Shown piece after piece: positions 31,174 through 62,961 of a stretch of 64,000 bases of DNA. The notes below the pieces were generated by a model. That model had not been told where the DNA came from. It was given only the letters and a program-made list of their open reading frames with translations, and did no database searches. Position 1 is the stretch's first letter; the number at the start of each line of letters is the position of its first letter. The position numbers and the translations under genes are program-made. Location: positions 398,661 through 462,660 of the forward strand of contig CALFYW010000016.1 in NCBI GenBank assembly GCA_937952265.1. Direction: 5' to 3'. Source of the DNA: an uncultured bacterium. GTDB taxonomy: Bacteria; Patescibacteriota; Minisyncoccia; Phycocordibacterales; GCA-2401445.

Positions 31174-31175
31174 GC

Positions 31176-35612: not shown

Positions 35613-35634
35613 TATTGGCAGGGGTTTAAACGTT

Positions 35635-37877: not shown

Positions 37878-38908
37878 ACATTTTAGTAATTACTCAAAAA
37901 GTAGATCAAGATGATACCGTCCTTGGATTTTTTCATGGCTGGCTAAACGCATTGGGAGAAAAGTTTGACCATGTCTCGGTGATTTGTCTTGAGAAAGGAT
38001 CCACCGATTTACCTCAAGATATGCCAGTGTATTCCTTAGGAAAGGAATCGGGATTTTCGCGTATTCGTTATGTATGGAATTTATTTTTTTATCTTGGAAA
38101 ACTTCACCATCGTTATGATTGCGTATTAGTACACATGAATTATGAGTACGTACTTTTGGCTGGTTGGTGGTGGAGACTGTTTGGGCGGAAGATTGGATTT
38201 TGGTATAACCATACATACGGAAATATCTTTTCTCGTATTGCATTCATGATTGCGCACCGAGTTTTTCATACATCCCCCTTTGCTTTTTCAGCAGGAAGGT
38301 CAAACTCAGTATCTATGCCGGCTGGGATTGATACAAAACTTTTTTCAACTACTCAAAATCAAGTTCCTAACACTATTCTTTTTGTAGGTCGTATTGCTCC
38401 CGTGAAAGGGCTCATCACCTTAATTAAGGCTGTTCAACTTTTAGTTCAAAGGGGTGTTTCGGTTTCTCTTAACATATATGGAGAAGCGCTTTCTCGAGAC
38501 AGAAAGTATCAGGAGCGTGTTCACGTAGAGGCTCAAAATTTAGTGACACGTGGAATAGTGAAATTCCATAACGGGGTAGCCTATGATCAGGTACCGCAAT
38601 TATTTGCTTCACATGAGTTTTTTGTTAACCTCACTCCAAAGGGAAATTTTGATAAGACCGTGTTAGAGGCTATGGCTAGTGGTGCAATACCGGTGGTTTC
38701 AAGCACGGCATTCTCAGACCTCTTACCCCCACCCACTTTTTTTAAAGAGCATGACGCGGACGATCTTGCTCGCCAGCTCGAATATTTAATGAAGCTCTCT
38801 TTCGAGGAGAAGTCGAAGATTAGAGGGTTGTTACGCAAACGTGTCGAGAAGAAGCATGATCTCCATGTGCTCGTGTCGCGGTTAGCGGAAGAATTTGATA
38901 CATTATGA
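37874..38908 (+). CDS. Glycosyltransferase (GT4-like).
   Basis: FVGRIAPVKG...TVLEAMASGAIPVVSS. ATGA overlap. Confidence 0.6.
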   Translation: MNILVITQKVDQDDTVLGFFHGWLNALGEKFDHVSVICLEKGSTDLPQDMPVYSLGKESGFSRIRYVWNLFFYLGKLHHRYDCVLVHMNYEYVLLAGWWWRLFGRKIGFWYNHTYGNIFSRIAFMIAHRVFHTSPFAFSAGRSNSVSMPAGIDTKLFSTTQNQVPNTILFVGRIAPVKGLITLIKAVQLLVQRGVSVSLNIYGEALSRDRKYQERVHVEAQNLVTRGIVKFHNGVAYDQVPQLFASHEFFVNLTPKGNFDKTVLEAMASGAIPVVSSTAFSDLLPPPTFFKEHDADDLARQLEYLMKLSFEEKSKIRGLLRKRVEKKHDLHVLVSRLAEEFDTL

Positions 38909-40050
38909 TGAAGAAGATTTATTATATTGCAAATGCTCGGATGCCAACCGAACGAGCTCATGGTATACAACTTGCAAAGATGTGCGAAGCATTTCTTGAT
39001 ATTGGTGTTCCACTAACGCTCGTCGTTCCAAAACGTAAAACAGTAGGAGAGCAGGTCGCGTCTTTTTATGGACTTGCGAGAGAAATTCCAATCGTGAAGC
39101 TCCCTATTATCGACACGTTTCTTTTTGGTCGTCTCGGTTTTATTTTTGGGACGATTTCTTTTATGGCATCGTATAGCGTATTCCTTCTTCGGAAGAAACT
39201 CTCCGGGGAGGACTTTGTGGTATATACCATTGATATGGATCAGTTTTCATTTTTGCCACTCATTATATTTAATATTCCATATGTGATTGAAGTACACGAT
39301 GCAAAGCCGAAACGCTTTTTATTTCGGCTTTTATTTCGGCGTGCTCGGGCAGTGATGGTTATCAATCGTTTAATTCTGGAAAAGATCCATCGTTATTTTA
39401 ATGTGCCGAAACACCATATCTTTGTGGTCCCGAACGCCATTGATCCAAATTTTATGAATAAGGCTCAGCTAAGAGATGCTTTTCGAAAGAAAGAAGGTAT
39501 TCCACCTAAAGCGTTTCTTCTCTTATACGTGGGAAAATTTTACGAATGGAAAGGTTTTGAGATTTTATATCAACTCGCTCAAGACCTTGATCCTTCCGTA
39601 AACATTGGGTTGGTTGGAGGATCAAAGGAAGAACTCGAAGAGTTAATTGGAAAGCATGTCCCCGAGAATATATTTTGTTTTGGAGCTCGGCCTTATGAAG
39701 AGGTGCCGTCCTGGATCGAGGCTTCGGATGCGTTACTCGTGCTTGGAACTAAAGCAAATGAGTATTCTTATTACCATACATCCCCGATGAAATTATTTGA
39801 ATATCTTGTTTCGGGTCGCCCAATTATTGCAAGTAAGACCCCGGCGATTTGTGATATTGTGAGTGAGAAGGAAGTTTTATTTTATATGCCTGATGATAAG
39901 GAAGATTTAAAGCGCGCTATCTTACGTGTTCAATCGAACCCAGCATCCTTCCATAATCGAGTAAAAGCCGCAAAGGAGTTAAGCACCTCATTTACCTGGC
40001 ATTCTCGAGCGAAGAAAATTAATCAATTTATAAAGGACCGACTATCATGA
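38905..40050 (+). CDS. Glycosyltransferase family 4.
   Basis: SPMKLFEYLVSGRPIIASKTP. ATGA overlap. Confidence 0.65.
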   Translation: MMKKIYYIANARMPTERAHGIQLAKMCEAFLDIGVPLTLVVPKRKTVGEQVASFYGLAREIPIVKLPIIDTFLFGRLGFIFGTISFMASYSVFLLRKKLSGEDFVVYTIDMDQFSFLPLIIFNIPYVIEVHDAKPKRFLFRLLFRRARAVMVINRLILEKIHRYFNVPKHHIFVVPNAIDPNFMNKAQLRDAFRKKEGIPPKAFLLLYVGKFYEWKGFEILYQLAQDLDPSVNIGLVGGSKEELEELIGKHVPENIFCFGARPYEEVPSWIEASDALLVLGTKANEYSYYHTSPMKLFEYLVSGRPIIASKTPAICDIVSEKEVLFYMPDDKEDLKRAILRVQSNPASFHNRVKAAKELSTSFTWHSRAKKINQFIKDRLS

Positions 40051-41135
40051 GAATTGGCATTTTCCTTCATCCTTATAATGAAAAAAAACCAGCAGGATTA
40101 GGCAGGTTTATTTTCTATTTAAGCAGGCACTTGATTGAAAACGCGCCGCAACACACCTTTTACCTTTTTGTTAAAAGTGCCCCAAAGGTGAAGCCGGATA
40201 TCTCTGGTTCAAACTGGTCTGTCATAGAATGCGGCCGCGGATTATTTTGGATGGATCGTGGAATTTCAAAAGCGCCAAAAGCTGATATATACCTTTTTAA
40301 CACACCAATAATACCTGTTTGGAGAAGCGTGAAAAAAAGTGTGGTAATTGCGCTTGATTTTGCCTATCTTGATTTCCACTCTCCGGGCATACTACACGCG
40401 TTAAAACGATACATCCTTAAACAATACCACCGCTTCTCTCTTAAACGTTCTGATCAGATAATTGCAATCTCGCACGCGACAGAGGGGGATGTGATTCAGA
40501 GGTTTCATATTCCTCAACAAAAAATTCGTGTTATCTACCCCGGTTTTTCATCGGTGTGTGAGATAAGCCCTAAATATGTGTCGGTACCCAAACCATTTTT
40601 TCTTTTCATTGGGGTGATAAAAGAGAGGAAGAATGTACATGGAGTTATCGAGGCTTTTATAAAGCTTCTAAAAGAGGATGCGACAGTGTCTCTTGTGGTT
40701 GCGGGTAATGGAGAGGGGGATTACTATGAGCAGATTATATCGCGGGTAAAAACCGCGAATGCTCTTAATCGAATTTATTTTCTAGGTCATATTTCAGCAG
40801 CAGAAGTTTCTTATCTTTTTCAAAATGCGCGAGCGTTAGTATTCCCGAGTTTAACAGAAGGGTTTGGTTTTCCAGTACTTGAGGGTATGGAATGTGGTAT
40901 TCCCGTCATTACGTCAAATAGTTCGTCTTTAGTTGAGCTCGGAGGTGATGCCGCGTATTTAGTTGATCCGCGTGATCCCGAATCAATCTATAAGGGGATG
41001 AAAGCACTGCTTTATGATGAGAATATCCATCAAAAATTGATTCTTCGCGGTTACGAGCAAGTTAAAAAATTTTCTTGGAATCGTTCAGCCCGAGAATTTT
41101 TATTAGTGCTAGAAGAATTATGCGGCCAGAAATAA
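40047..41135 (+). CDS. Glycosyltransferase family 4.
   Basis: LTEGFGFPVLEGMECGIPVITSN. ATGA overlap. Confidence 0.75.
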   Translation: MRIGIFLHPYNEKKPAGLGRFIFYLSRHLIENAPQHTFYLFVKSAPKVKPDISGSNWSVIECGRGLFWMDRGISKAPKADIYLFNTPIIPVWRSVKKSVVIALDFAYLDFHSPGILHALKRYILKQYHRFSLKRSDQIIAISHATEGDVIQRFHIPQQKIRVIYPGFSSVCEISPKYVSVPKPFFLFIGVIKERKNVHGVIEAFIKLLKEDATVSLVVAGNGEGDYYEQIISRVKTANALNRIYFLGHISAAEVSYLFQNARALVFPSLTEGFGFPVLEGMECGIPVITSNSSSLVELGGDAAYLVDPRDPESIYKGMKALLYDENIHQKLILRGYEQVKKFSWNRSAREFLLVLEELCGQK

Positions 41136-42253
41136 GAAAAAAAATTTTAGTATCCTTAACGTTGGTGTGTTCACCCATACTTCTCTTGCTTCTACACTTT
41201 AGAAACACCCGAAAGTCTGAAAATCCGCGAATACTAGTTATTCCGCAACTGACCCGTATTGGTGATCTCATTTCTGTCACACCGATATTTCGGGAAATCA
41301 AAAGAAAGTTCCCTCACGCGTATGTTGCTGTATTAGTGAGTAAGAAAAACATGGGAGTAGTAATTGAAAATCCTCACATTGACGAAATCATTCATTATCA
41401 AAGCATTAGGTTATTTGCTGTTTTGAGAGCAATCTATCAGGGGCATTTTGATATAAGCATTAATGCGGGCGCAACGAGCGAAGGAACCGCTATATCCCTC
41501 TGGGGCCAAATCCCAGAGCGGATCAAGCTTACCTATTCAGGTCGTCCATTGTTTGAGGTGCTCACTGATTGGATGAACACGCACTCCATGCGATACACGC
41601 ATCAAACGTATCTCCCATCATTTTTTCTGCAACTTCTACATCCTCTTGGGATTAAGGCAGAGAATACCGATCCTGAAGTTTTCGTGACTCATCGTGGCAG
41701 AAAAGTGCGCGATAATTTTCTGGTCGAGAAAGGTATTCAGGGTGGGAAATATATCGGAATAAGTATTACGGCGGGAAATAAAATAAAAGAGTGGGGTGAT
41801 GATCGGTTTAAGGAGTTAATAAAAAAAATTCTTAACCGTTTTCCCTACTACATTTTTCTGATTGGAGGAGCGGGGGATCGGGAACGGATAATGAGCTTTC
41901 GGGAAAGATTTTCTCGAGAAGAAGCCGAACGGATCGTTCCTGTCTGCGGTATTCCGCTTGAAATACTTTCTGCCTTTTTTGAGAAACTCTCATTGTTTAT
42001 TGCGGTTGATACTGGTTTAATTCATATGGCACACGCGCTTGATGTACCACTTATTGATATTCTTGGACCGGTTGATTCAGAAGAGCTTTCCCCTAAGAGT
42101 AGGAAGAGCAGGTTACTGCTTCCGCTCAATACCAGACCGAGTGTCTTTGCTTTTAAGCGTCCCGGATCTGCGGAAGATGCTCGGCGCGCCCTTTCTTCTA
42201 TTAGTGTGGATCAGGTCGAGTCTGCATGTGAAGACCTTTTGTCGGAGAATTGA
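41119..42253 (+). CDS. Glycosyltransferase family 9 (ADP-heptose:LPS heptosyltransferase-like).
   Basis: LIGGAGDRERI...LFIAVDTGLIHMAHALDVPLIDILGP matches the GT9 C-terminal signature. Start at the Met (MRPEIRKK) at 41119. Confidence 0.65.
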
Positions 42254-42303
42254 ATCAACGAGGGTGAGAGGGTATAGTTCCATAAAGGGATATTTTATTT
42301 TTT

Positions 42304-42861
42304 ATGATGACAGCAAAAAAACTTAATCTTGGTTGCGGGACTGATATTCGATCAGGCTGGGTAAATCTTGACAAGTATGACCTTCCTGGTGTTGAGGTCG
42401 TACATGACCTTGAGGTACTCCCGCTTCCTTTTTCTGATCATTCTTTTGACGAGATTCTTTGTCAGGATATTTTGGAGCACGTGGCGTATCCAGTACTCCT
42501 TAAAGAGCTTTATCGGATTCTAAAGAAGGAAGGTGTTCTTAAGATTCGTGTGCCTCATTTTACCTCGAAAAATAATTTTATTGATCCAACACACCAAAAG
42601 ATGTTCAGTGTTCGAACTTTTTATTTTTTTGTTACTGATCATGGGTTTAAGAAATACCATCGAAAGTATTACTTTGATTTCTCTTTTAGAAAGATTACGT
42701 CATTGCGCATCACCTTTGAGGGGAGTTCTCGCTTTTTTTTCTATAATCGATTTATCGAGTGGGTAGTTAATAGGAGCGAGGATACCCAGTATCTCTATGA
42801 AGCGACCGGCTTTTCCCGTATTTTTCCTGCAGAAAATATAGAAATTACTTTAATCAAATAA
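42304..42861 (+). CDS. Class I SAM-dependent methyltransferase (Methyltransf_11/23-like).
   Basis: LNLGCGTDIRSGWVNLD...FDEILCQDILEHV. Paralogous to the gene at 55847. Confidence 0.6.
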   Translation: MMTAKKLNLGCGTDIRSGWVNLDKYDLPGVEVVHDLEVLPLPFSDHSFDEILCQDILEHVAYPVLLKELYRILKKEGVLKIRVPHFTSKNNFIDPTHQKMFSVRTFYFFVTDHGFKKYHRKYYFDFSFRKITSLRITFEGSSRFFFYNRFIEWVVNRSEDTQYLYEATGFSRIFPAENIEITLIK

Positions 42862-42869
42862 AATGTATT

Positions 42870-44081
42870 ATGAACATTGCGTTAATTGTACGAAGGCTTG
42901 ATACTCGCGGAGGTACCCAACGCCAAGCTCTTGCGCTTGCTCACACCCTAAAGGAGCGGGGAAACAATGTCGTAGTATACACCTTTCGATATCAACCATC
43001 AGAGACCTTCTCAGAATCGCTTAAAGGTATACGAGTTGTCGCACTAGATCAGAAAGAAGGTAAGGATTATTCGCACTCGATACCTTTTCTTCCGAAGTTT
43101 TTTTCAGATTATCTCAATGATAACCGATGTGCTCGTGCGCTTGCGCGATGTATTGATGTCGACACACACGTGCTTAACCCTCATGATCAAGTAAGTTATC
43201 GTGTCGCGGTGTATTTCAAAAAAAAGGTGAAACAAATTCCATCTGTGTGGATGATGAATGATATGCCCACTAAGTATGCGTCTATGATACGTGAACGAGA
43301 AGTATACGGATATCATCGAACTTCGCTATTAAAACGAATCATATATAAGTTTTTTGATTTCTTTGAGATCCGATGTTTTATCAAGCCACAAGATGCCATT
43401 GTTGTGTTAGATCATCGAGATAAAAAGTGGGCTCAAGAATTTTTCAAAAAAGATGCTTTTGTGGTACGAAGTGGTCTTGATCACAATCGTTTTACTTATC
43501 GAGAACGCACCCTGTCTTCAAATAAAAGGATTAATATTCTTACGACAAGCATTTTTCTTCCGCATCGGAGATTTGAAGACACGCTTCGTGCTATTCGGAT
43601 GCTTTTAAACACAAAAGAGTACGACATACAGTTCTCAATTGTTGGAGGATTTCATAATAAGGGATATGTAGAGTTTATTCGAAAAGTGATAAAGGAAGAG
43701 AAGCTTCAGCATAACGTGTCTCTCCTCGGAGCAGTCTCTGATGAGAAATTACAGGCTCTCTATAGAGATGCAGATATTTTTGTATTTGTGAGCCATATGC
43801 AGAGTTGGGGTATTGCGGTTTTTGAAGCGCTCGCATCAGGGATCCCAACAGTCGTATCAGAAACCACTGGAGCATCGGAAATTCTTAAGAATGGTCTTCA
43901 TGCGATAACAGTTCCTCCGAAAAATCCACGCAGGATTGCGGACGCGCTTAATACACTCATTACTGATCCAGATCTTTATCAGAGTTTAAGCAGAGAAGGT
44001 CGAGCTTTAGTACTCAGTGAGATCTCATGGGAGCAATATAGCAAGAAGATGGAGGCTATTATGGAACATGTTATGAGATAG
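42870..44081 (+). CDS. Glycosyltransferase family 4.
   Basis: SHMQSWGIAVFEALASGIPTVVSETTGASEIL. Confidence 0.7.
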   Translation: MNIALIVRRLDTRGGTQRQALALAHTLKERGNNVVVYTFRYQPSETFSESLKGIRVVALDQKEGKDYSHSIPFLPKFFSDYLNDNRCARALARCIDVDTHVLNPHDQVSYRVAVYFKKKVKQIPSVWMMNDMPTKYASMIREREVYGYHRTSLLKRIIYKFFDFFEIRCFIKPQDAIVVLDHRDKKWAQEFFKKDAFVVRSGLDHNRFTYRERTLSSNKRINILTTSIFLPHRRFEDTLRAIRMLLNTKEYDIQFSIVGGFHNKGYVEFIRKVIKEEKLQHNVSLLGAVSDEKLQALYRDADIFVFVSHMQSWGIAVFEALASGIPTVVSETTGASEILKNGLHAITVPPKNPRRIADALNTLITDPDLYQSLSREGRALVLSEISWEQYSKKMEAIMEHVMR

Positions 44082-44119: not shown

Positions 44120-45466
44120 ATGAAGACCGTTGTAATTACCAGTTTTCACCCCCATATTTCAAGGAATATTTTAAGCACGGAAGCATTTCGTATTTTAGTC
44201 CAAAATCCAAAGCTTCGAATTGTGCTCGCGGTTCCTGATTATAAGGTGGATTTTTTTACTAAAGAATACGCTACCAACGAGCGCATTTCAGTATTTGGTA
44301 TTGAACCCTATCAGGCTTCTCGAACGCTACGCGGGCGATTTTTTAAGCGCCTAGGGGTATTTCTTTTTGATACCCAAACCGCTCGAAACAGAAAAAAATA
44401 TGAATACTATTTTCATGGTAAATATATTATTTATTATTTTTCTCGACTACTTGGTATAATTGGCCACTCTTTTATTTTTCGTCGATTGGTACGTTTTCTT
44501 GATCTGTGGTGCGCTCCAAAAACAAGTGCTTCACGCATGCTTTCTGAAATTAAACCGGACATGCTCTTTTCAACTGATCTTCAAAATGAAAATGATGTGA
44601 GCATCATGCACGCGGCACGCAAGGGAAAAATTCCTATTTTAGGAATGTTACGTTCATGGGATAATCCAACTCAGCGTATTCTACGAGTTTTACCAGAAAA
44701 AATGATTGTAGGGTCAAACGTGCTTGAAGAAGAAGTTCGCTTGCTGTATCGATACCCACCAGCACAAATCGTTATTACGGGAAATCCGCATTATGACCGA
44801 TATCTTAAGGGTCCCACGATGAGTAAGGATAAATTTCTAAAGTCTCTCAATCTTCCCCTCGATAAAAAACTTATTTTATATGCGCCAGTTAGTGATGCGC
44901 TCATCTACCATAATGATATTGATGAATATGTGCTCTCCCTACTTGGAGATGTTGACGCATCAGTATTAGTTCGTTTTCCTCCAGAAAAGCCGGTTCGTCT
45001 CTCGGGTGATTTTAAACAACCTCAGAACATGGTCTATGATCGTCCGGGCGTATCTTTTAATGCTCGTCGGGTTGGTGATCGTGAGATTCGTCGCGAGGAT
45101 GATAGTCGCCTTATTGATTCTTTGTATCATGCGGATGTGGTGGTAACTGGCCCGACGAGCATTACCATTGATGCTGCATTAATTGATCGTCCGGTAATCG
45201 CGGTTCATTTTTATCCTACGCCACGTGAGTTTTTCCGTTCTGTATACCGTTACGAGGATAATCAGATCGTTAAAGTTCGAGAAACGGGAGGTATTCATGT
45301 GAGCGTTACAAAAGAAGATTTTTTAAAAACTCTTGCTTCTTATTTAGAAAATCCAAGACGTGATGCAAAAGGAAGAGAGAAAATACGATCAATGTGGTTT
45401 TCGCATGCAGATGGAAGTGCTGGCAGGCGTGTGGCGGACGCGGTACTTGATTTTCTAACGGTATGA
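44120..45466 (+). CDS. TagB/TagF-family CDP-alditol/glycerol phosphotransferase-like protein (Glyphos_transf), paralog 1.
   Basis: SWDN motif, LILYAP, and ADVVVTGPTSITIDAALIDRPVIAV (cf. TagF LITDYSS...DKPIIFY). Confidence 0.45.
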   Translation: MKTVVITSFHPHISRNILSTEAFRILVQNPKLRIVLAVPDYKVDFFTKEYATNERISVFGIEPYQASRTLRGRFFKRLGVFLFDTQTARNRKKYEYYFHGKYIIYYFSRLLGIIGHSFIFRRLVRFLDLWCAPKTSASRMLSEIKPDMLFSTDLQNENDVSIMHAARKGKIPILGMLRSWDNPTQRILRVLPEKMIVGSNVLEEEVRLLYRYPPAQIVITGNPHYDRYLKGPTMSKDKFLKSLNLPLDKKLILYAPVSDALIYHNDIDEYVLSLLGDVDASVLVRFPPEKPVRLSGDFKQPQNMVYDRPGVSFNARRVGDREIRREDDSRLIDSLYHADVVVTGPTSITIDAALIDRPVIAVHFYPTPREFFRSVYRYEDNQIVKVRETGGIHVSVTKEDFLKTLASYLENPRRDAKGREKIRSMWFSHADGSAGRRVADAVLDFLTV

Positions 45467-46842
45467 AAACAATTCTAATTCCAATCACAACAAATTTCTT
45501 TTCTCGAACGTTTCTTCAAACTGACGCTCTATCCGAATTATTGAAAGATCCAGAAATTCGTATTGTCTGCTTATCCCCGAAGAATAGGAGATATTATTAC
45601 GAAAAAACATTCGGGCATGACCGATTACTTTTTGATGAACTTCCAGACACCAGTGCAAAGACCATTGAGTCAGTATTTAGATTTTTGGAAGTGTGGAGTA
45701 TTAAAAGTAAAACACAGAAACTGATTATCGATGCGGAATTTCACCGCAAGGGAAGTAAAGCCTCTTTCTTCTTACGCCTCATTACTTTTATGTTAAAAAA
45801 ATCCTTATGGTTTTTGGGAGCTTTCCGTTGGTGGCGACAGGGGATCCGTTTTTGCTACAGCGTATTTTCGAGCACTGATTACCATGCTTTGTTTGGAGTC
45901 TATCATCCGGAATTAGTATTTGCTCCTACGATGCTTCCTGCTGATGCGCACATACTTCGAGAGGCAAAAAAATTCGGTATTAAGACTGCTGGGGTAGTAC
46001 TAAGCTGGGATAATCTTTATAGTAAAACATTTTTTCGTGTACATCCTGATCGAGTCATGGTTGCGTCAAAGACATTGGAAGATCTTGCGGTAGAGAAAGC
46101 TGATTATCCGCGGAATAAGCTAGAGGTGATCGGTATTCCCCAGTACGATCGTTACGCGAATAAAAAACCCTCACTTTCTCGTGATGAGTTTATTCGCAAA
46201 CTCGGCGGCGATCCTTCAAAAAAATTAATACTTTACGCGCTGTCAGGAAAAAAAGGCATATCTATCGAACATGGTATTATTGAATTGCTGTATCGCATAG
46301 TAAAGGAGAACATGCTTAAAGAGCCTGTTGAGGTGCTCATACGCCCTTATCCTCGCTATGATTTTTCTGAAGAAAAATTATCGAAGTGGCGACATGAATA
46401 TGGGTTTCGAGCCGAATCATCACTCGCACATATTGACGGTAAAGCAGATGAATGGGAATTTGATGATGTATCACTTGATTTTTTGCAGAATAGTCTTGCT
46501 CATGCGGATGTGATTATTACCATGTATTCTACTTTTTTTATTGAGGGAGCGATTCACGATAAGCCGTTAGTCGCGATAGGGTTTGATGGTTTAGAAGATG
46601 AAAATTATTGGAATTCAAGTCGGCGTTTTTTTGAGTGGGATCATTTGAAGTCATTATTGCCGTGTGATGGGATTACCTTCGCCCGTAGCTTCCAAGGTTT
46701 AGCCGAATCAATTAATAGCTCGCTCATGGATCCGAAATTAAAACGGGAAGGAAGAAAATGTATCGTAAATCAGCAGGCAACGTTTAACGATGGAAAATCA
46801 GGCATTCGTCTGGGAAAGTCACTTTATACCTTGATGAAATAA
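45463..46842 (+). CDS. TagB/TagF-family phosphotransferase-like protein, paralog 2.
   Basis: VLSWDNLYS and ADVIITMYSTFFIEGAIHDKPLVAIGFDG. ATGA overlap with paralog 1. Confidence 0.45.
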   Translation: MKTILIPITTNFFSRTFLQTDALSELLKDPEIRIVCLSPKNRRYYYEKTFGHDRLLFDELPDTSAKTIESVFRFLEVWSIKSKTQKLIIDAEFHRKGSKASFFLRLITFMLKKSLWFLGAFRWWRQGIRFCYSVFSSTDYHALFGVYHPELVFAPTMLPADAHILREAKKFGIKTAGVVLSWDNLYSKTFFRVHPDRVMVASKTLEDLAVEKADYPRNKLEVIGIPQYDRYANKKPSLSRDEFIRKLGGDPSKKLILYALSGKKGISIEHGIIELLYRIVKENMLKEPVEVLIRPYPRYDFSEEKLSKWRHEYGFRAESSLAHIDGKADEWEFDDVSLDFLQNSLAHADVIITMYSTFFIEGAIHDKPLVAIGFDGLEDENYWNSSRRFFEWDHLKSLLPCDGITFARSFQGLAESINSSLMDPKLKREGRKCIVNQQATFNDGKSGIRLGKSLYTLMK

Positions 46843-46854
46843 TATTGTTTCGTT

Positions 46855-48252
46855 ATGCATAAAAAAACAATCGCCATTACGTTAGGATCTGCGGCCGCGT
46901 TTCGGAACCTCTTTTTCTTCCCAGGGAGCGTGTTCGAACAGCTTCGAGTATATGCGAAAAAAAATAATATTCGAATTCTTGTCTGCATTACGCCAAAAGA
47001 CTATGAAAAGTATCAGCCAATTATTAACCCTGATGGGGAATATGTGTGCTATGAGAAAATTTCAGTCGCTCCTGCGCGCAGATCTCTTGAGCGCGTATTC
47101 TACTTTTTCTATTCCTACTTAGTGTATACCGGAACGACGAAAGTGTTAGCTACCATGGCGATTCGTCCTGATGAGCCCCCAGCCGGAGGAAAGTCGTATT
47201 TAGTATTCTTGAAGTGGACAATTTCTCGTTTTTTTGGATGGAGTCGTTTTTTGAAACGAAATGTTATCCCTTTTTTATTTCACAAAATTTTTATTGAGAG
47301 ACCCTTCAGAGATACAATCGAATCATACCAACCTGATCTTATGGTGAGTACCCATATCTATGGATGGTTTGATACTCAGTTTCTTCGAGAAGCAAAAGCG
47401 CAAGGCATTAAGACCATCGGCATGCCTGCTGGGTGGGATCATCTCGATAAGTATTTTCTACCATTTCACCCTGATACCCTTTTAGTTCCAAGTAAAGAAC
47501 TCTCAAATGCCGCAGTAAAATACCAAGCATACGCGAAATTTGAAATACAAATTGTAGGGTACGCGCATTTTGATTTTATTCTAAACCCAGAAATTCAAAA
47601 AACACGAGACGAGGTGTTGCGTTTCTTGAATTTTCCACCCCATGCCAAGTATCTTCTCTATGTGTCTGGAAGCGCGTATTGCCCGGATGAACCCGATATT
47701 ATAGAGACATTGCTTCAATGGTTTGAGGAGAAGCAGGTTGGTGATGAGGACGTTTACCTGGTTATCCGCCCTTACTTAGGAGGGAGAGGGAAAGACCGTG
47801 AATTTGATGAGAAAAAGTTTAATCGTTTTAAGACGCACCCAAGAGTTTATTTTTTTGATAAACCACTTTGGAATGATGTTGAAAATAGTGCCTCATTTAT
47901 TAATATTATGCGATACGCGGATGTGGTGCTTGGTATGTATACCACAATTGTGCTTGAGGCAAGCGTATTTGATCGACCGCTTATTGCCGCCGGATTTGAC
48001 GGTTATACTACACGCCCCATGAAGCGCTCAATTCGTCGGTTTGAGTATCTTGAGCATTTTAAGGATGTTCTGAAGACAGGAGCACTTCCAACCGCTTATA
48101 ATTTTTCGGAGTTACAAGAGTTGCTCAAACTCACGTTAGCTGATCCTCATAGTCGGTCACATGAACGCGAGAAATTGCGACATTCACTCGCAGGGGTCCT
48201 TGACGGGGCATCTTCTCGTCGTATAGTAGATGCATTAATTAACGCGCTCTGA
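46855..48252 (+). CDS. TagB/TagF-family phosphotransferase-like protein, paralog 3.
   Basis: PAGWDHLDKYF and ADVVLGMYTTIVLEASVFDRPLIAAGFDG. Confidence 0.45.
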   Translation: MHKKTIAITLGSAAAFRNLFFFPGSVFEQLRVYAKKNNIRILVCITPKDYEKYQPIINPDGEYVCYEKISVAPARRSLERVFYFFYSYLVYTGTTKVLATMAIRPDEPPAGGKSYLVFLKWTISRFFGWSRFLKRNVIPFLFHKIFIERPFRDTIESYQPDLMVSTHIYGWFDTQFLREAKAQGIKTIGMPAGWDHLDKYFLPFHPDTLLVPSKELSNAAVKYQAYAKFEIQIVGYAHFDFILNPEIQKTRDEVLRFLNFPPHAKYLLYVSGSAYCPDEPDIIETLLQWFEEKQVGDEDVYLVIRPYLGGRGKDREFDEKKFNRFKTHPRVYFFDKPLWNDVENSASFINIMRYADVVLGMYTTIVLEASVFDRPLIAAGFDGYTTRPMKRSIRRFEYLEHFKDVLKTGALPTAYNFSELQELLKLTLADPHSRSHEREKLRHSLAGVLDGASSRRIVDALINAL

Positions 48253-48253
48253 T

Positions 48254-49216
48254 ATGAAAATTTCGATAGTTACTCCACTGTTTAACGAAGAGGAAAGTGT
48301 AGCTCCTTTCTTAAGGGAGTTACGAAGCGTACTAAAGAAGACGGGTCTGGCGTATCAAGTGGTTGCGATCGATGATGGTTCAACTGATAAAACCTATGAT
48401 GAAATGTCTGCTTTCTCCTCTCGTTTTCCTGAGTTATTGATTATTAGATTCAGTCGTAATTTCGGGCAAACCGCGGCATTATCAGCGGGATTAAAGCACG
48501 CAGAGGGAGAGGTAATAATTACGATTGATAGTGATCTTGAAAATGATCCTCACGATATCAATAAGTTGGTCGACAAGATCAAAGAGGGGTTTGATGTTGT
48601 TTCCGGTTGGCGCAAAAGTCGATGGGAAGGTCACACTTTTTCTCGAAAGATTCCTTCTTTAGTTGCTAACTGGCTGATTTCAAAAATTGGAGGAGTACCG
48701 CTTCACGATTACGGCTGCACACTAAAAGCATATCGTCGTAGCGTAATTGAGGGGCTTTCTTTGTATGGCGACATGCACCGTTTTATTCCTATTTATGTAC
48801 ACGGGAGGGGTGCACGTATTACCGAGATTCCGGTAGCACATCGGTCGAGGCGCTTCGGAAAAAGCAAATACGGCATATCGAGAACATTCCGTGTACTCCT
48901 AGATCTTTTCTTTATTAAATTCTTTACGGGTTACCTCAATCGGCCGATCCACTTTTTTGGTGGTATCGGACTTATTTGTTTACTCCTTGGTACTATTGCT
49001 GGAGTATGGTCAATTGCTTTAAAAATTTTGGCGTTGCGAACTTTTGTCTCCACCCCACTTCCTACCTTTGCGGCTCTTTTTCTCATTATTGGAGTACAAC
49101 TTATCATTATGGGTATCTTGGCAGAAATGATGATGCGTACCTATTATGAATCACAACAGAAAACCCCTTACGTGATTCGAGAAAAAATTTCTCAGGGTCG
49201 TATCGTAGAATCATAA
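48254..49216 (+). CDS. GT2 polyprenyl-phosphate glycosyltransferase (GtrB/ArnC/DPM1-like) with C-terminal TM helices.
   Basis: ISIVTPLFNEEESV...AIDDGSTD...TIDSDLENDP (DxD). Two C-terminal TM segments. Confidence 0.8.
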   Translation: MKISIVTPLFNEEESVAPFLRELRSVLKKTGLAYQVVAIDDGSTDKTYDEMSAFSSRFPELLIIRFSRNFGQTAALSAGLKHAEGEVIITIDSDLENDPHDINKLVDKIKEGFDVVSGWRKSRWEGHTFSRKIPSLVANWLISKIGGVPLHDYGCTLKAYRRSVIEGLSLYGDMHRFIPIYVHGRGARITEIPVAHRSRRFGKSKYGISRTFRVLLDLFFIKFFTGYLNRPIHFFGGIGLICLLLGTIAGVWSIALKILALRTFVSTPLPTFAALFLIIGVQLIIMGILAEMMMRTYYESQQKTPYVIREKISQGRIVES

Positions 49217-49218
49217 TT

Positions 49219-51105
49219 ATGTGTGGCATTGCAGGATTTGTTGGAAGTGGAAATCAAGCTGATCTTAACTTGATGCTAAAGCGTATTGCGCATCGGGGTC
49301 CTGATAGTGAGGGAAAATTCACCCGGGGGAATGTGTTCTTTGGCCACCGGCGTTTATCGATCATTGATTTGAGTAGCGCGGGAAACCAACCTATGTGGAA
49401 TGAGGAGGGAAATATCGCGCTTATTTTTAATGGTGAGATCTATAATTTTCAGGAATTACGGAAAGAGCTTCTTGCTACTCGGCGGCATACGTTTCAGAGT
49501 AATACTGACACCGAGGTGATCATCCATCTTTATGAAGATCTTGGAGTTCAGTGTTTTAAGAAGCTCTCAGGGATGTTTGCATTAGCGATTTATGATTTTC
49601 GATCTAATCGTTTAATATTGGCTCGAGATCGAATTGGCAAGAAACCTCTTTATTGGTCGCGACAAGGAGATACGATCATTTTTGCGTCAGAACTTAAATC
49701 AATACTTGCGCACCAGTTAATCCCTAAAGCGATTGATCCAATGATGCTCAATCAGTATCTTCAATATGACTATGTGCCGACCCCATATACGATGGTTCAA
49801 GGAGTGAGGAAGCTTTTAGCCGGAAACTACCTTCTCTGGGATGGGAAGAAACACAGCCTCCATTCATTTTGGGAGCAATCATTTCTACCTAAGCACTCTG
49901 AAGAGTCAATCGAGGCAACACTTTCTCAGCTTAACAAGCACCTCACCAAGAGTGTTTCAGAGAGGCTGGTTGCTGATGTACCGGTGGGAGTCTTTCTAAG
50001 TGGTGGGTTGGATAGCGCGGTTATGGCATACTATGCGTCTATCTTACAACCTTCTTCAGTACGGACATTTTCTGTTGGATTTCGAGAGAAGACTTTTGAT
50101 GAATCAAGTTATGCACGCATGGTAGCAGAATATTTAAATACCGATCATACCGAGCGTTATGTGACTGTTCAGGATATGCTCGATGCAACACTTAGTATTA
50201 CCGATTTTCTCGATGACCCTATTGCTGATACCTCAATTATTCCAACGTATTTATTATCTAAGTTTGCCCGTGAGTCAGTCACGGTTGTACAGAGTGGTGA
50301 TGGCGGAGATGAGCTCTTCGCGGGGTACCCTACTTTTTTTGCGGAGTTTTTTGCACGTTTCTATGAGAAGGTCCCCCGCGCAATCCATCATCATGTAGTT
50401 CGTCGAATAACTCAGTTATTCCTCTCTCCGCACGATAAGTACTTTAGTCTCGAATTCAAAGTTAAAAAGTTCTTAGAAGGATTTGAAGATATGAGACATC
50501 GTCGACATGCTATCTGGCTCGGTAGCCACTCAAGGGATAGTAGATCAAACCTATTATCTGAATCGTTATGGAGTGAGGTTGGAGGAGAAAATGAATTTGC
50601 GTTAGTTGATGCTTTTTTTGAACGTTTTAGGAATGAGGATTCGCTCAGTCAACTTCTTGCTTTCTATCAGCGATTTTATTTGATGGATCAGGTTTTGGTA
50701 AAGGTGGATCGCGCAAGTATGGCGCACGGATTAGAAGTTCGATCTCCTTTTCTTTCCTATGAACTCGTTGATTATGTCAACCGCATGCCTTCAGATCTAA
50801 AGTATCGGATGTTTACCTCAAAGTGGATTTTGAAGAGGTTGATGCATGGGAAGCTTCCACCTCAAATTATCAATCGAAAGAAACAAGGGTTTGCAACACC
50901 GCTTTCTCTATGGTTTAAAAATGAACTCAAGGGATTTATCTCAGAGGTTCTACTTTCCTCAGGGGTGAAGCAGGACGGTTTCTTTAACACGGTATACATT
51001 GAACGCTTAATTCATGAGCATGTCTCCGGGAAAGAAAACCATACCAAAAGGATCTGGTCTTTATTGGTATTCGAACTTTGGAAGAACCGGTGGCTTAAGC
51101 GTTAA
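49219..51105 (+). CDS. asnB: Asparagine synthetase (glutamine-hydrolysing) AsnB-family amidotransferase.
   Basis: N-terminal MCGIAG nucleophile. PP-loop SGGLDS. Confidence 0.85.
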   Translation: MCGIAGFVGSGNQADLNLMLKRIAHRGPDSEGKFTRGNVFFGHRRLSIIDLSSAGNQPMWNEEGNIALIFNGEIYNFQELRKELLATRRHTFQSNTDTEVIIHLYEDLGVQCFKKLSGMFALAIYDFRSNRLILARDRIGKKPLYWSRQGDTIIFASELKSILAHQLIPKAIDPMMLNQYLQYDYVPTPYTMVQGVRKLLAGNYLLWDGKKHSLHSFWEQSFLPKHSEESIEATLSQLNKHLTKSVSERLVADVPVGVFLSGGLDSAVMAYYASILQPSSVRTFSVGFREKTFDESSYARMVAEYLNTDHTERYVTVQDMLDATLSITDFLDDPIADTSIIPTYLLSKFARESVTVVQSGDGGDELFAGYPTFFAEFFARFYEKVPRAIHHHVVRRITQLFLSPHDKYFSLEFKVKKFLEGFEDMRHRRHAIWLGSHSRDSRSNLLSESLWSEVGGENEFALVDAFFERFRNEDSLSQLLAFYQRFYLMDQVLVKVDRASMAHGLEVRSPFLSYELVDYVNRMPSDLKYRMFTSKWILKRLMHGKLPPQIINRKKQGFATPLSLWFKNELKGFISEVLLSSGVKQDGFFNTVYIERLIHEHVSGKENHTKRIWSLLVFELWKNRWLKR

Positions 51106-51157
51106 GTGGTATATGTGATATGATGCTTTTTGTTTATTATTGTAACTTTCTTAAACC

Positions 51158-52747
51158 ATGTTTTCTCTATTAAAGGATCGGTCGTGGCGTTTGGCCATCA
51201 TCACTATTTTGGGATTATCGTTTCTCCTGCTTGAAATAGTAATTTTGGTATTATATCGCGAGACATGGTTTGACGAACTACTCTATCTATTTAAAGGAAG
51301 GGCGGCAATTGGAGGTTCTCTTGTTCCTTTCCAGGATATGATCATTGCTCATCCACCGCTTGCGTTCCTTCTTCATGGAATTACCCAGTATATTTGGGGC
51401 CCAAGCATCCTGCTCGGAAGGATCGTATCCTCAATTATTTTTTTTGGTATCTTATGGATTATGTATGTGATCGCAGATCGCTATGCGGGTGCTCTTGCTG
51501 GAGTAGGGGCGCTCTTTTTGATGGTGAGCAATGTTTTTCTAGTAGGGAACTATGTATCAGCTGTTCCGTTTGGGCTTTCGGTTATTTTTATTTTATTGAG
51601 TATCTGGGTTGAGTTATTAAAAATATCTTCTCAAAGAAAAACACTCTTATCAGCTTTCCTTATTGGGCTTGCGGTATTAACACGAATTAACCTATTACCT
51701 GCTGCAATTATGTATGTTCTATTTCTTGCGGTAACTCGTCGTGGTTGGAGGGAAATAGGGTCTTTCAGTATTGTGTTTGTGGTAATACTCTTTTTAGGAT
51801 TCACCCCTTTTCTTTTGTTGGATTTTTCACTTGCGATAAGTGTTATTCTGGCGCCATTTGTGAGTATCGGACTTCTTTCATCACTTCCATCATCGGTGAA
51901 AGCCGATGGATTTTCCTTTTCAGAATTTTTACCAACCATCGTTTCCTTTGTTCGGGAATATGATTTAACACTGCTCCTGTTCTTTGCGGTGACAAGTCTC
52001 CTCTTATTTTCGGTTTGGAATACGCGGGATCGTTTTCTTAAGACTGAGCCAGTATACGTACTCTTGCTCATGATAGGGACTGGGCTTTTTATACCACACT
52101 ATTTTTATTGGAAAATTAGCGGAAGCTTAGTTTACGCGAATTATTTCTTCCCATTTTTGATCCTCGCGATTGTGATTGGAATATTCCGATTTTTTCCAGA
52201 GAAAAAAGTTTTAATTGTCTTTCTGGTTGGGGTGATTAGTCTGAATTTCTTAGGAAATATGTTTCGGACCGATATCATTTCTCACCCAAATGATGAGACT
52301 GATCTCGAACGAATTAATCGTGGAGCAATGCTTCTAAAGAAACATACCAATCCCGAGGATTTAATCATCGCTTTCGATAATTCAATTTTCCACGTGTTTG
52401 CTGCGGATCGGGTCACCAAAGGTCCCTTGCTTAACAGAAATTTTATGTTTGTGGGTTTGCCGGATACATCATTAGTAAATCGGATTCTCCATTATAATCC
52501 TGAAATACTCCTCACGTGGATCGACAACGCGGATTATGTTGTACTTCATGAAGAAAAATGGCCGTGGACATTTCGTAGAACATTTCGATCAGTAGATGGT
52601 TATGACAGTGAAGCATTTATCCATCAAGTTGAGCGGCTGTTAAATGATCGGTATGTTTTGGAAGATCGTGCGTTTAATGTATATCCACGGAAATATACTG
52701 AGGGAAATGATGGAGGTACCCTTCTTTTATACCGTCGCATTAAGTGA
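51158..52747 (+). CDS. Polytopic membrane protein, GT-C fold glycosyltransferase-like (ArnT/PMT family-like).
   Basis: 529 aa with ~11 TM segments. Lies immediately after the GtrB-like polyprenyl-P-sugar synthase; the pairing suggests a lipid-linked sugar acceptor transferase. Confidence 0.45.
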   Translation: MFSLLKDRSWRLAIITILGLSFLLLEIVILVLYRETWFDELLYLFKGRAAIGGSLVPFQDMIIAHPPLAFLLHGITQYIWGPSILLGRIVSSIIFFGILWIMYVIADRYAGALAGVGALFLMVSNVFLVGNYVSAVPFGLSVIFILLSIWVELLKISSQRKTLLSAFLIGLAVLTRINLLPAAIMYVLFLAVTRRGWREIGSFSIVFVVILFLGFTPFLLLDFSLAISVILAPFVSIGLLSSLPSSVKADGFSFSEFLPTIVSFVREYDLTLLLFFAVTSLLLFSVWNTRDRFLKTEPVYVLLLMIGTGLFIPHYFYWKISGSLVYANYFFPFLILAIVIGIFRFFPEKKVLIVFLVGVISLNFLGNMFRTDIISHPNDETDLERINRGAMLLKKHTNPEDLIIAFDNSIFHVFAADRVTKGPLLNRNFMFVGLPDTSLVNRILHYNPEILLTWIDNADYVVLHEEKWPWTFRRTFRSVDGYDSEAFIHQVERLLNDRYVLEDRAFNVYPRKYTEGNDGGTLLLYRRIK

Positions 52748-52770
52748 TCCTCTAAGGTTATAGTTAATAT

Positions 52771-53943
52771 ATGCGAATTTTAATCATTGCACCGACACCT
52801 TTTTTTTCACATCGAGGATGTCATATAAGAATTTTTGAAGAAGCACGAGCACTGCTTGAACGGGGTCATTCGGTTGAAGTAGTAACGTACCATATCGGTG
52901 AAGATCTTCCGGATATTTCTATAAAGAGGATCCCTAATTTTTTTTGGTATCAGGAAAAAGGAACACATGTAACGTGGCATAAACTTTATTTTGATTTTTT
53001 TCTTCTCCTGCGCGCTTTTTATTCTCTGTTGCGTTTTCGTCCTCATGTCTTACATTGTCATCTCCACGAGGGAGCGCTTATCGGTATTATTTTACGTCTA
53101 ATTACGCGAAAACCGATGGTTTTTGATAGCCAAGGGAGCCTTGTAGCAGAGCTTAAAGAGTTAAAGGCGATCAACCAAAATTCATTTTCGTACCGATTAT
53201 TCTTGTGGATTGAAAAGTTTATTTATTGGCTGAGCCCCATTATCTTAGTAAGTAATGAGGCTAATAGAGTAGAATTGATAACTTCATTTAAGGTACCAGA
53301 GAGGAAGGTAAAATTATTGGAGGACGGCATTTCAATTGCCGATTGCAAGGTTTCGAAATCTACCGCTCAGCGTTTTCGAAAGGAAATTCGTGTTCCCCCC
53401 AGCAAAAAGGTTATTATTTTTGTTGGGGGGTTATATCAAAAAAAAGGAGTAGGGGATATTATTGAGTTAGCGTATGAACTAGCCAAGAAGCGTGATGATC
53501 TCTTCTGGATTATTCGAGGGTTTCCTTATGTCACATGGTACCAAGAAGAGGTAAACAAGAAGCATCTTCAAAGCGTAGTCCATGTTGGTGGAAAAATACC
53601 GTATACTGATCTATGGAGCCTGTTTTCAATTGCCCACTTTGCAATTAGTCTAAAACCTCCAACTGTAGAGGGGAGCGGTAAGCTCTTGCATTATGCGCAG
53701 GCAGGTCTTCCCGTAATTTGCTATGATCAGTTATCCAATCGGTCGATATTAGGCGAGCACGCATTCTATCTTTCTTTTAATTCGTCCATGGAAGAGAATG
53801 CGTCGCATGTAAGTGATTATCTAGATCTTGAACCAGAAATACATAAGGAGAGCGTTAAGGCAATGCAGGAAATGGTGTTGCATACCTATGAGTGGAAACA
53901 AATTATTAAAGAATTAGAACATATCTATGGAGGTCTTATCTAA
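52771..53943 (+). CDS. Glycosyltransferase family 4.
   Basis: MRILIIAPTPFFSHRGCHIRIFEEARAL N-terminus and GGLYQKKGVGDIIELA. Confidence 0.65.
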   Translation: MRILIIAPTPFFSHRGCHIRIFEEARALLERGHSVEVVTYHIGEDLPDISIKRIPNFFWYQEKGTHVTWHKLYFDFFLLLRAFYSLLRFRPHVLHCHLHEGALIGIILRLITRKPMVFDSQGSLVAELKELKAINQNSFSYRLFLWIEKFIYWLSPIILVSNEANRVELITSFKVPERKVKLLEDGISIADCKVSKSTAQRFRKEIRVPPSKKVIIFVGGLYQKKGVGDIIELAYELAKKRDDLFWIIRGFPYVTWYQEEVNKKHLQSVVHVGGKIPYTDLWSLFSIAHFAISLKPPTVEGSGKLLHYAQAGLPVICYDQLSNRSILGEHAFYLSFNSSMEENASHVSDYLDLEPEIHKESVKAMQEMVLHTYEWKQIIKELEHIYGGLI

Positions 53944-54844
53944 ATGCACAATTTGTGGAAGCTCTCGCGTTCGCGAAGTAGGTCGCGGCGGCGATCTCTC
54001 CTTCTCTCATGATGAAATTTTCGTGTTTTCAGTATGCCTCAAGTGTCATGTGTTTTTTCTTTCAACAAGACCCCGAGAAGATGAAGCGTATAAGTTTTAT
54101 GGGGTTGAGTATGACCCATACACCGCATCATACACAAAACTGTCTGAACTCTTTATTCGCTTACGTACCTTGCGAGAACTCGATAGTATCGTTCGTTTCT
54201 TGCCTCCTAGGGACAAGAAGCGGCTGCTTGAAATTGGCTCATCGTGGGGGAAATACCTTCTACTTGCTCGTAATGAACGGAACTTTGAAGTCGTAGGAGT
54301 CGAGATGTCTAACGCAATGTGCCAAAAAGGGCGCGAAGAACACGGACTTCTTATCTATCCGGGAGATCTGCGCAATCAAGATTTTTCTCCTTCAGAATTT
54401 GATGTGGTAGTTATGAACCATGTGTTAGAGCATCTTTATCATCCGAAGGAAACGATAGCAATGATAGCCAAAATTTTAAATAAAAGAGGAGTGCTTCTTT
54501 TGCGAACTCCGGTTGTTGGGACTCTTGAGCAGAAAATTTTTGGAAAGTATTGGCATGCGTATGAATTTCCTCGGCACGTTACACTCTTTAGTGAGAAAAA
54601 CCTAGTTGATTTGCTTGAACAACAGGGATTTGAAATTAAAAAAATCAGATATGAGGGCGTGCCAAATAATTTAATTCTTTCCTTTAAGAATTTTTTTCAA
54701 ATGAAGCTTGGTAGTGGGGTTATTGCAAATTTATTTTCAATCAAGAATCCATTGATGCTCGCACTCTTTTCCCCATTATCTTTTCTGCTTGGTTTTTTTC
54801 ATCAGAGCGGAAGAATTATGATCATTGCTCAAAAACATAAATGA
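53927..54844 (+). CDS. Class I SAM-dependent methyltransferase with an N-terminal Cys-rich (zinc-ribbon-like) segment.
   Basis: CTICGS...CLKCH, then LEIGSSWG...FDVVVMNHVLEHL. Confidence 0.55.
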   Translation: MEVLSKCTICGSSRVREVGRGGDLSFSHDEIFVFSVCLKCHVFFLSTRPREDEAYKFYGVEYDPYTASYTKLSELFIRLRTLRELDSIVRFLPPRDKKRLLEIGSSWGKYLLLARNERNFEVVGVEMSNAMCQKGREEHGLLIYPGDLRNQDFSPSEFDVVVMNHVLEHLYHPKETIAMIAKILNKRGVLLLRTPVVGTLEQKIFGKYWHAYEFPRHVTLFSEKNLVDLLEQQGFEIKKIRYEGVPNNLILSFKNFFQMKLGSGVIANLFSIKNPLMLALFSPLSFLLGFFHQSGRIMIIAQKHK

Positions 54845-55830: not shown

Positions 55831-55846
55831 TATTATTTAATTTTTT

Positions 55847-60646: not shown

Positions 60647-60656
60647 TAGGGAGCAC

Positions 60657-62252: not shown

Positions 62253-62271
62253 TTCGGTTTAAAAAGTAGGG

Positions 62272-62934: not shown

Positions 62935-62961
62935 ATTTTTTGTGTAATAAATAGAGACACC

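Follow-up and report, generated by a model that had tools for sequence, protein, structure and literature searches.

Three consecutive genes on the forward strand of a 64,000-nucleotide stretch of contig CALFYW010000016.1, from an uncultured member of the Patescibacteriota (this whole stretch is called the window here), encode proteins A, B and C, which form part of a distinct branch of the TagB/TagF (PF04464) GT-B superfamily. As judged from the family alignment, the signature of the branch is an invariant W-D loop together with an invariant arginine (R-x-x-P). We favour, at a probability of about 0.5, the reading that A, B and C are membrane-peripheral GT-B transferases dependent on cytidine monophosphate (CMP), and that they add ulosonic acids resembling ketodeoxynonulosonic acid (Kdn) to a lipid-linked glycan. 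Attachment of an acidic nine-carbon sugar is preferred over teichoic acid synthesis because both catalytic histidines of TagF have been lost and because the family is found beside genes for sialic-acid-like sugars.

Paralog A (44120-45466) is 448 aa long, paralog B (45463-46842) 459 aa and paralog C (46855-48252) 465 aa, and each belongs to an orthogroup of its own. The A and B reading frames overlap by 4 bp (ATGA), 12 bp separate B from C, and a GT2 gene begins 1 bp past C. BLASTP comparison of A with B gave 26% identity (E 2e-34), of A with C 27% (E 1e-25) and of B with C 29% (E 1e-41); on these scores the similarity is far above chance and the three are true paralogs. A sequence-only reading of the window had described three consecutive genes of ~450 aa with a common set of motifs and had related them to TagB/TagF. 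The + strand open reading frames (ORFs) lie exactly where it placed them, and every motif that it quoted was found: SWDN in A (W180-D181, aa 179-182; 44654-44665), with its equivalents SWDN in B (aa 181-184; 46003-46014) and GWDH in C (aa 193-196; 47431-47442); LILYAP, LILYAL and YLLYVS in A, B and C, respectively; and, in the same order, ADVVVTGPTS...DRPVIA, ADVIITMYST...DKPLVA and ADVVLGMYTT...DRPLIA. The proposed relationship also held up. The gathering cut-off of PF04464 (Glyphos_transf) is 22.1 bits; A (55.7 bits, E 5e-15) and B (29.5 bits) exceed it, and C, at 21.2 bits, misses it narrowly but is homologous to the PF04464 family by transitivity, as a paralog of B. The match of the paralogs is restricted to the C-terminal two thirds of the Pfam model. 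PF04464 is the sole consistent Pfam match of the family, and 20 of 20 relatives tested matched it at E<=1.

Another assembly of the same population (L001; ENA ERZ869942) carries a single G-to-T change that converts codon 380 of B from GAA to TAA, at window position 46600 (L001 position 12481). The truncated B of 379 aa was recorded as a separate cluster. This stop codon could be a strain-level knockout or an assembly error.

A phmmer search of the PDB with A alone returned no match. A profile built from A, B, C and D, the last being a fourth paralog type that some genomes carry, matched TarL (8va1; E 4.8e-4) and Cps3D (E 1.7e-3), and alignment of the paralog profile with a TagF-family alignment in hhalign gave a probability of 99.6% and an E-value of 4e-23. 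On these profile comparisons, homology to TagF is secure though distant. The TagF reference set was taken from annotated plasmid records of Listeria, Staphylococcus, Lactiplantibacillus, Parabacteroides, Enterococcus and Pontibacillus; three of its six loci adjoin tagD or tarI, and its alignment displays the invariant motifs WH(G), PR-D, YAPT-x-R, K/R-x-H-P/Y and ITDYSS.

The sequence-only reading had offered conservation of the catalytic histidine as the check on its assignment, and both TagF histidines prove to be replaced. The histidine of the HP motif (TagF H584, TarL H433) contacts the alpha-phosphate and is essential (PMC10901376; PMC11666461). In the well-aligned C-terminal domain hhalign set R285 of A opposite the lysine of KMHP and P287 (Tyr in B and C) opposite the HP-motif histidine, so that the VRFPP sequence of A (44969-44983) and its counterparts IRPYP in B (46339-46353) and IRPYL in C (47764-47778) correspond to the K/R-x-H-P motif with the histidine lost. 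Across 192 family members the HP position is occupied by Pro in 80, Tyr in 46, His in 34 and Gln in 17, while R285 is present in 188.

The second histidine, the catalytic base (TagF H444, TarL H300), lies in the WHG motif described in PMC11666461. In TarL, strand beta15 (W299-H300) lies four strands ahead of beta19, which carries H433 (PMC10901376). In the AlphaFold model of A, W180-D181 follows the fifth strand of the N-terminal domain (aa 173-177) and likewise lies four strands ahead of the R285 loop (aa 281-285). Because strand order and the four-strand spacing match, the W-D-N/H loop is inferred to be the counterpart of WHG, with Asp in place of His; the correspondence is topological and does not come from a superposition. 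The N-terminal register proposed by hhalign, in which WHG is set opposite a helix and its histidine opposite the invariant Ala166, was of low confidence in global, local and cut-out runs and was not used. Under either register the WHG histidine is absent from the aligned A, B and C sequences, and no N-domain histidine common to A, B and C was found in the alignment of the three orthogroups. D181 is invariant (192/192) and the W-D pair is present in 187 of the 192 members.

Further near-invariant residues include D226 (189/192), R419 (180/192) and H382 (167/192), together with R437, D/E159 and D/E351. H382 is the single conserved histidine of the C-terminal domain and, from its conservation, could substitute for the lost HP histidine; in A itself this residue (45263-45265) is Gln, which is found in only 2 of the 192. 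The YAPT-W/F-R and ITDYSS motifs are degraded. TagF-like polymerases carry an extra N-terminal domain (PMC10901376) that is missing from A, B and C, which speaks against the division into primase, extender and polymerase that had been suggested for the three genes.

The AlphaFold model of A (predicted local distance difference test score, pLDDT, 92.6; predicted template modelling score, pTM, 0.90) consists of two Rossmann-like domains in a GT-B fold. A basic, aromatic insertion at aa 62-146 (44303-44557) forms five helices in the model and has equivalents at aa 60-150 of B and aa 68-160 of C. The insertions have net charges of +12 (A), +7 (B) and +9 (C) and contain 17-19 aromatic residues (~20% aromatic), and a search for transmembrane (TM) segments found none in any of the three proteins. 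In TagF and TarL comparable helices serve as a membrane platform (PMC10901376), and the modelled insertion is likely to be a monotopic membrane-binding platform at the cytoplasmic face.

Besides the GT-B fold and the basic helical insertion, the family shares with the TagF-like transferases (TagB, TarF, TagF, TarL and the CgoT domain of Cps3D) a G-x-P-x-x-D linker, the YAP strand, an S/T-rich helix start and a K/R two residues ahead of the HP position; by the same comparison a CMP-releasing reaction is probably also common to A, B and C. It differs from them in the loss of T-W/F-R and DYSS, in the change of the WHG His to Asp and of the HP His to Pro or Tyr, in the lack of adjacent tagD or tarIJ genes and of the N-terminal polymerase domain, and in its linkage to genes for NeuB and for synthetases of CMP-activated nonulosonic acids (NulOs).

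The three genes are not a local expansion. A, B and C occur in identical order in six distant Parcubacteria loci, and all-against-all BLAST resolved three orthogroups with within-group scores of 330-496 bits for A, 377-490 for B and 407-528 for C, compared with 65-160 bits across groups. The tandem arrangement claimed in the sequence-only reading thus stands, whereas the triplication it implied does not: by these scores A, B and C are three old orthogroups whose order has been kept across Parcubacteria. Three family copies were present in 36 loci of the 84-locus set described below. In one locus (L004, 10001-18503) the order is A, methyltransferase, B, two methyltransferases, C and methyltransferase, followed by genes for Wzx, a methyltransferase, a NeuB-cupin protein and a haloacid dehalogenase (HAD) phosphatase; the presence of one or two S-adenosylmethionine-dependent methyltransferases after each paralog suggests that every added residue is methylated. 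Double-length members of ~900 aa (P0121, P0134, P0152, P0175, P0202 and L005 13214-15907) consist of two tandem family domains, which suggests that the paralogs are physically partnered. An interpretation of the 897-aa L005 protein as a B+C fusion was rejected, as its BLAST scores were ~170-240 bits to A and B alike and ~100-130 to C.

The family is also widespread. A has 161 homologs at 40-56% identity; every one that bears an organism name comes from Patescibacteria/Parcubacteria (Giovannonibacteria and Vogelbacteria are among them), and wherever a function is given it reads 'CDP-glycerol glycerophosphotransferase family protein' (CDP, cytidine diphosphate). Among the GTDB species representatives, 190 stretches were found to encode relatives, practically all of them in metagenome-assembled genomes (MAGs) of Patescibacteria. 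An exhaustive search with an A-only profile returned 1023 clusters (50% identity) at E<=1e-30 and 3640 at E<=1e-10. By these profile matches the branch is large, common in Patescibacteria and present also in Proteobacteria, so that genes of this kind are not peculiar to this genome.

Gene neighbourhood points to the nature of the donor. All ORFs were clustered in 84 loci: the window, 77 loci from GTDB and six from metagenomes. Genes for GT4 (46 loci), short-chain dehydrogenase/reductase (SDR) dehydratases/epimerases (44), CTP_transf_3 CMP-sugar synthetases (42) and NeuB (37) were the commonest neighbours, followed by GT2 (28), NeuC-like Epimerase_2 (21), Wzx (19) and methyltransferases. NeuB or a CMP synthetase was present in 47 of the 84 loci, and in 19 of the 24 with >=7 kb on both flanks. 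The distance from one of these genes to a family member was <=300 bp (directly adjacent) in 17 loci and <=2.5 kb in 32. The directly adjacent member was of the A type (R-x-P-P) in eight cases, and members of the HP type were likewise found adjacent. A triad and NeuB or CMP-synthetase genes share one island in the window, L004, L007 and L016.

A cytidylyltransferase for a polyol donor (TagD or TarI), proposed as a further check in the sequence-only reading, was not encountered: TagD, TarI and TarJ homologs were absent among all scanned ORFs of the window, and the 84 loci held no credible TagD or TarI. Genes of the PF01467 family occurred in 5 of the 84 loci and were never adjacent to a family member. 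As candidates for TagD these five were rejected, since four scored highest to RfaE-type heptose-1-phosphate adenylyltransferase, with the TagD model lower and the RfaE-type NCBIfam scores all under the model cut-off, and one was a phosphoenolpyruvate (PEP) mutase fusion. All TarI matches in the 84 loci were cross-hits to the CTP_transf_3 CMP-synthetase cluster. The PEP mutase fusion (L075, 2522-3895; 393 bits to TIGR02320) carries the PF01467 cytidylyltransferase domain, lies ~6 kb from a family member and shares its locus with a CMP-sugar synthetase; it may be a sign that some Patescibacteria decorate the glycan with phosphonate.

The other source of activated donor that had been considered for the window, a CMP-sugar synthetase downstream of the triad, is favoured by this linkage. 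The gene belongs to a candidate donor-supply module (59861-63684, + strand) that comprises a methyltransferase (59861-60646), a NeuB-cupin fusion with the cupin domain at its C-terminus (60621-62252; Pfam NeuB 155 bits plus Cupin_2), a HAD phosphatase (62272-62934) and the CTP_transf_3 CMP-sugar synthetase itself (62962-63684; Pfam 92 bits). The order methyltransferase, NeuB-cupin, HAD is repeated in L004. The synthetase matches the NCBIfam model for PseF at 126 bits, with a weak KdsB match, and the NeuB part matches that for NeuB at 151 bits, both under the equivalog cut-offs. The best PDB match of the NeuB part is 3g8r (295 bits), an uncharacterised SpsE-like protein, and not NeuB, PseI or LegI. 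The cupin part resembles D-lyxose/D-mannose isomerases. Homologs of NeuC, PseB/C and LegB/C were not found in the window, and from its gene content the module is possibly a compact pathway to a Kdn-like sugar.

Relatives outside the Patescibacteria show the same association. The best plasmid match of A, the 'hypothetical protein' WP_147885260 of Rhizobium sp. WL3, fits the profile of the family over its full length (161 bits, E 1e-50) but gave no match to the TagF hidden Markov model (HMM) built here. It carries the motifs SWDQ and RCHP, and its gene directly follows acylneuraminate cytidylyltransferase, neuC, KpsF and NeuB-family genes; its homologs in Polaromonas and in a Rickettsiales MAG likewise lie among CTP_transf_3, NeuB and Epimerase_2 genes. 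In the same Rhizobium NulO cluster (L094, 539-3321) the NeuB-family gene has two more genes for 'hypothetical proteins' (475 and 449 aa) ahead of it, and neither product matches the family HMM or the TagF HMM. A more distant TagB/SpsB-like gene of B. thuringiensis stands immediately upstream of a complete pse operon.

Knowledge of bacterial NulO transferases is scarce (PMC5420450). In Tannerella forsythia the TagB-domain proteins Tanf_01245 and TFUB4_00887 are required for addition of derivatives of pseudaminic acid (Pse) or legionaminic acid (Leg) (PMC5420450), and among TagB-like proteins they alone offer a genetically supported precedent for NulO transfer. They resemble A, B and C in that they are GT-B proteins of the TagB superfamily whose genes accompany those for nonulosonate biosynthesis, and the NCBIfam family to which they belong (NF046086, the BFO_1060 family) is the top NCBIfam match of all three paralogs. 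Unlike the paralogs, they carry D/E-D/E-G and HP motifs; the comparison with them is indirect.

Bacterial GT-B sialyltransferases (GT38, GT52 and GT80; PmST1 is an example) use an N-domain Asp as base and a His or basic residue on the phosphate, with CMP as the leaving group. The chemistry proposed here matches theirs, and the Rhizobium member joins W-D with R-C-H-P, an Asp and HP pair. A, B and C differ from them in having neither D/E-D/E-G nor HP, and among 20 family members no match to the sialyltransferase Pfams (GT38, GT42, GT52, GT80) was obtained at E<=1.

From these patterns we infer donor, catalytic roles, order of action and product as follows. The C-terminal half that aligns to PF04464 is the half that holds the CDP-polyol donor in TagF and TarL, and on this alignment it is retained in A, B and C; the donor, however, would be a CMP-activated ulosonic acid and not CDP-glycerol or CDP-ribitol. 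Judging from the genes, the sugar in this genome is probably Kdn-like. It could be made by a short route in which the cupin isomerises a ketose to an aldose, NeuB condenses the aldose with PEP, the HAD protein removes a phosphate if the substrate is phosphorylated, and CMP activation follows, possibly with O-methylation. The insertion would dock each enzyme on the cytoplasmic face of the membrane, where Asp181 may act as general base on the acceptor hydroxyl and Arg285, with His382 in most members, may handle the CMP phosphate, as in inverting GT-B sialyltransferases. A, B and C would act in sequence, each with its own acceptor specificity, on a polyprenyl-linked oligosaccharide made by the flanking GT4 and GT9 gene products. 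The Wzx homolog (58476-59855) would then flip the glycan, whose further processing on the outer side might fall to the membrane-anchored GT2, the PMT_2-like GT-C and an 11-TM protein.

Several observations weigh against this assignment. The case is built from gene neighbourhood and from patterns of residues. Only ~4 of 15 true A-B-C triad loci have NeuB or a CMP synthetase within 10 kb, and many triad loci carry GT9 with heptose genes of the GmhA, GHMP-kinase and RfaE types instead; in the window the NeuB module lies 12.4 kb from C, with one minus-strand gene between. The equation of W-D with W-H relies on strand order, since the N-domain register of hhalign is of low confidence. A Foldseek search of the PDB with the A model returned generic GT-B enzymes, among them MshA and uridine diphosphate (UDP)-N-acetylglucosamine 2-epimerases at TM-scores of ~0.55, with TagF (3l7m/3l7l) at rank 34 (E 1e-10). 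Foldseek thus cannot separate the model from generic GT-B enzymes, and the modelled fold alone is silent on the donor. The NF046086 scores are 40.5, 37.9 and 28 bits against a cut-off of 200 and cover the inter-domain region only. The motif [DE][DE]G was not found in A, B or C, and the HP dipeptides present are off the motif position. Finally, B. subtilis spsB adjoins legionaminic acid genes, and its deletion leaves spore Leg unreduced (PMC7439481); adjacency is therefore no proof of NulO transfer. SpsB and the B. cereus-group SpsB-like proteins (COG1887) resemble the family in being TagB-domain proteins encoded beside Leg or Pse operons and are weakly similar to A (E ~1e-3). They differ in keeping K-P-H-P and in missing the W-D motif, and they are no nearer to the candidate phyla radiation family than TagF is (40 versus 38 bits).

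The heptose genes bear on the possibility that the three paralogs are ordinary glycosyltransferases of the GT-B fold, which would add neutral sugars to the same lipid-linked glycan from a nucleoside diphosphate (NDP)-sugar (for example ADP- or GDP-heptose, or a hexose) and whose likeness to PF04464 would reflect no more than shared fold ancestry. Triad loci often carry GT9, SIS_2 (GmhA-like), GHMP-kinase, NTP-transferase-HAD and RfaE-type genes, the top Foldseek matches are UDP-sugar enzymes, and eight members have weak Glyco_transf_4 matches in the N-terminal domain. Across the 84 loci, however, SIS_2 was found in 8 and GHMP kinase in 7, compared with 42 for the CMP synthetase, and such heptose donors are already accounted for by the GT9 genes. 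The specific alignment partner of the C-terminal half, moreover, is the CDP-polyol-binding half of TagF-like enzymes, and neither Glycos_transf_1 nor EX7E-type matches were obtained; we consider this explanation unlikely, at something like one chance in a handful. The sequence-only reading itself would make A, B and C CDP-glycerol or CDP-ribitol phosphotransferases of the TagB/TarF/TagF type, acting as primase, extender and polymerase of a teichoic-acid-like phosphodiester polymer. The PF04464 match, the NCBI label of the relatives, weak NCBIfam matches to TarF, TarB and TarL and the TagF/TarL-like insertion all agree with such a role, and Cps7A, a real glycerol-3-phosphate transferase, has Tyr in place of the first histidine (PMC11666461). 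Cps7A, however, keeps the pyrophosphate-contacting histidine, whereas here both essential histidines are gone, and the degraded YAPT-W/F-R and ITDYSS motifs, the missing polymerase domain and the want of a credible tagD, tarI or tarJ make teichoic acid synthesis decidedly improbable.

The attachment of a NulO by A, B and C also has to be set against the converse arrangement, in which TagF-like enzymes transfer some other activated group to an acceptor that bears a NulO, put there by a separate, unrecognised transferase. Cps7A offers a model, since it puts glycerol-phosphate onto 3-deoxy-D-manno-octulosonic acid (Kdo) and is specific for a Kdo acceptor (PMC11666461). That SpsB is dispensable for Leg transfer (PMC7439481) fits as well, and the L075 fusion suggests that other CMP-activated donors may occur near family members. 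On the other hand, the neighbour census gave no recurrent alternative donor pathway, and in the compact loci L065, L067, L074, L077, L079 and L088 nothing transferase-like other than the family member lies beside the CMP synthetase and NeuB genes; the arrangement appears rather improbable. The Gln at position 382 of A, the nonsense codon in B in one assembly of the population and the double-length members, with the physical interaction that they suggest, could instead mean that one or more of the three is a catalytically dead scaffold partnering an active paralog. Retention of D159, W-D, D226, R285, R419 and R437 in A, B and C, and conservation of the three separate orthogroups at 40-56% identity across classes, leave such a pseudoenzyme only a very slim chance.

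The triad is embedded in a larger set of glycan genes. Upstream, on the + strand, an island (34449-44081) encodes seven GT4 proteins, one GT9 (41075-42253) and a methyltransferase (42304-42861), by Pfam, and its gene order recurs in other assemblies and in L004. Downstream, the + strand island 48254-56422 includes, by Pfam and NCBIfam matches and TM counts, a membrane-anchored GT2 (48254-49216), an AsnB-type amidotransferase (49219-51105), a PMT_2-like GT-C protein with 9 TM segments (51158-52747), an LPG_synthase_TM protein (54841-55830), and GT4 and methyltransferase genes; GT2, AsnB and PMT_2 recur beside the triad in other loci. The sole minus-strand gene of the island (56426-58417) encodes a protein of 663 aa with ~11 TM segments and a soluble C-terminus of ~200 aa. 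It had no match in Pfam or NCBIfam, recurs in 14-16 related loci and may function as a GT-C-type transferase, ligase or polymerase. The Wzx/MOP-type flippase homolog (58476-59855, + strand; 459 aa, nine TM-like segments) groups by BLAST with L004 17133-18503 (PF01943/PF13440) and has no Pfam match of its own at E<=0.001. Directly upstream of the first island, 31107-34447 encodes a VirD4/TraG-like coupling ATPase (T4SS-DNA_transf, TrwB_AAD_bind) and a lamin-tail/PKD surface protein; a coupling ATPase precedes the island in L004 (1-418) as well. Elsewhere in the window, a bacterial class A ribonuclease P RNA lies at 17063-17451 on the minus strand (only 111.7 bits against a gathering score of 100).

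The triad thus belongs to an uncharacterised branch of the TagB/TagF superfamily that is marked by a catalytic signature of its own and by a three-gene order that has been conserved, and that is probably misannotated at scale. A more far-reaching proposal, which we regard as speculative and rather doubtful, is that the W-D / R-x-x-P branch is an unrecognised family of CMP-ulosonic-acid transferases (>1000 clusters at 50% identity) that arose from TagF-type enzymes by the His to Asp change, and that the triad is a fixed, possibly hetero-oligomeric three-step line. A run of Kdn-like residues would then form a phosphate-free, 'teichulosonic-acid-like' anionic coat, a counterpart of teichoic acid in ultra-small, host-attached Patescibacteria. 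The teichulosonic acid of Streptomyces (SCO4873-SCO4882), a phosphate-free anionic Kdn-type wall glycopolymer of a monoderm, is a possible functional analogue, at the conceptual level only. A literature search for Patescibacteria together with nonulosonic or teichoic acids found nothing specific.

Teichoic acid capability is probably over-called in Patescibacteria genomes, and even if the favoured assignment is wrong, a PF04464 match alone is no proof of teichoic acid synthesis. Members of the branch are now annotated as 'CDP-glycerol glycerophosphotransferase family protein' or 'hypothetical protein', and thousands of genes would be mislabelled if the branch indeed transfers CMP-activated ulosonic acids. 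It would then provide a natural case of a phosphotransferase scaffold that has been re-tooled into a glycosyltransferase through two catalytic residue changes. Many Patescibacteria surfaces would carry sialic-acid-like sugars, which would bear on host attachment and on phage evasion in these episymbionts.

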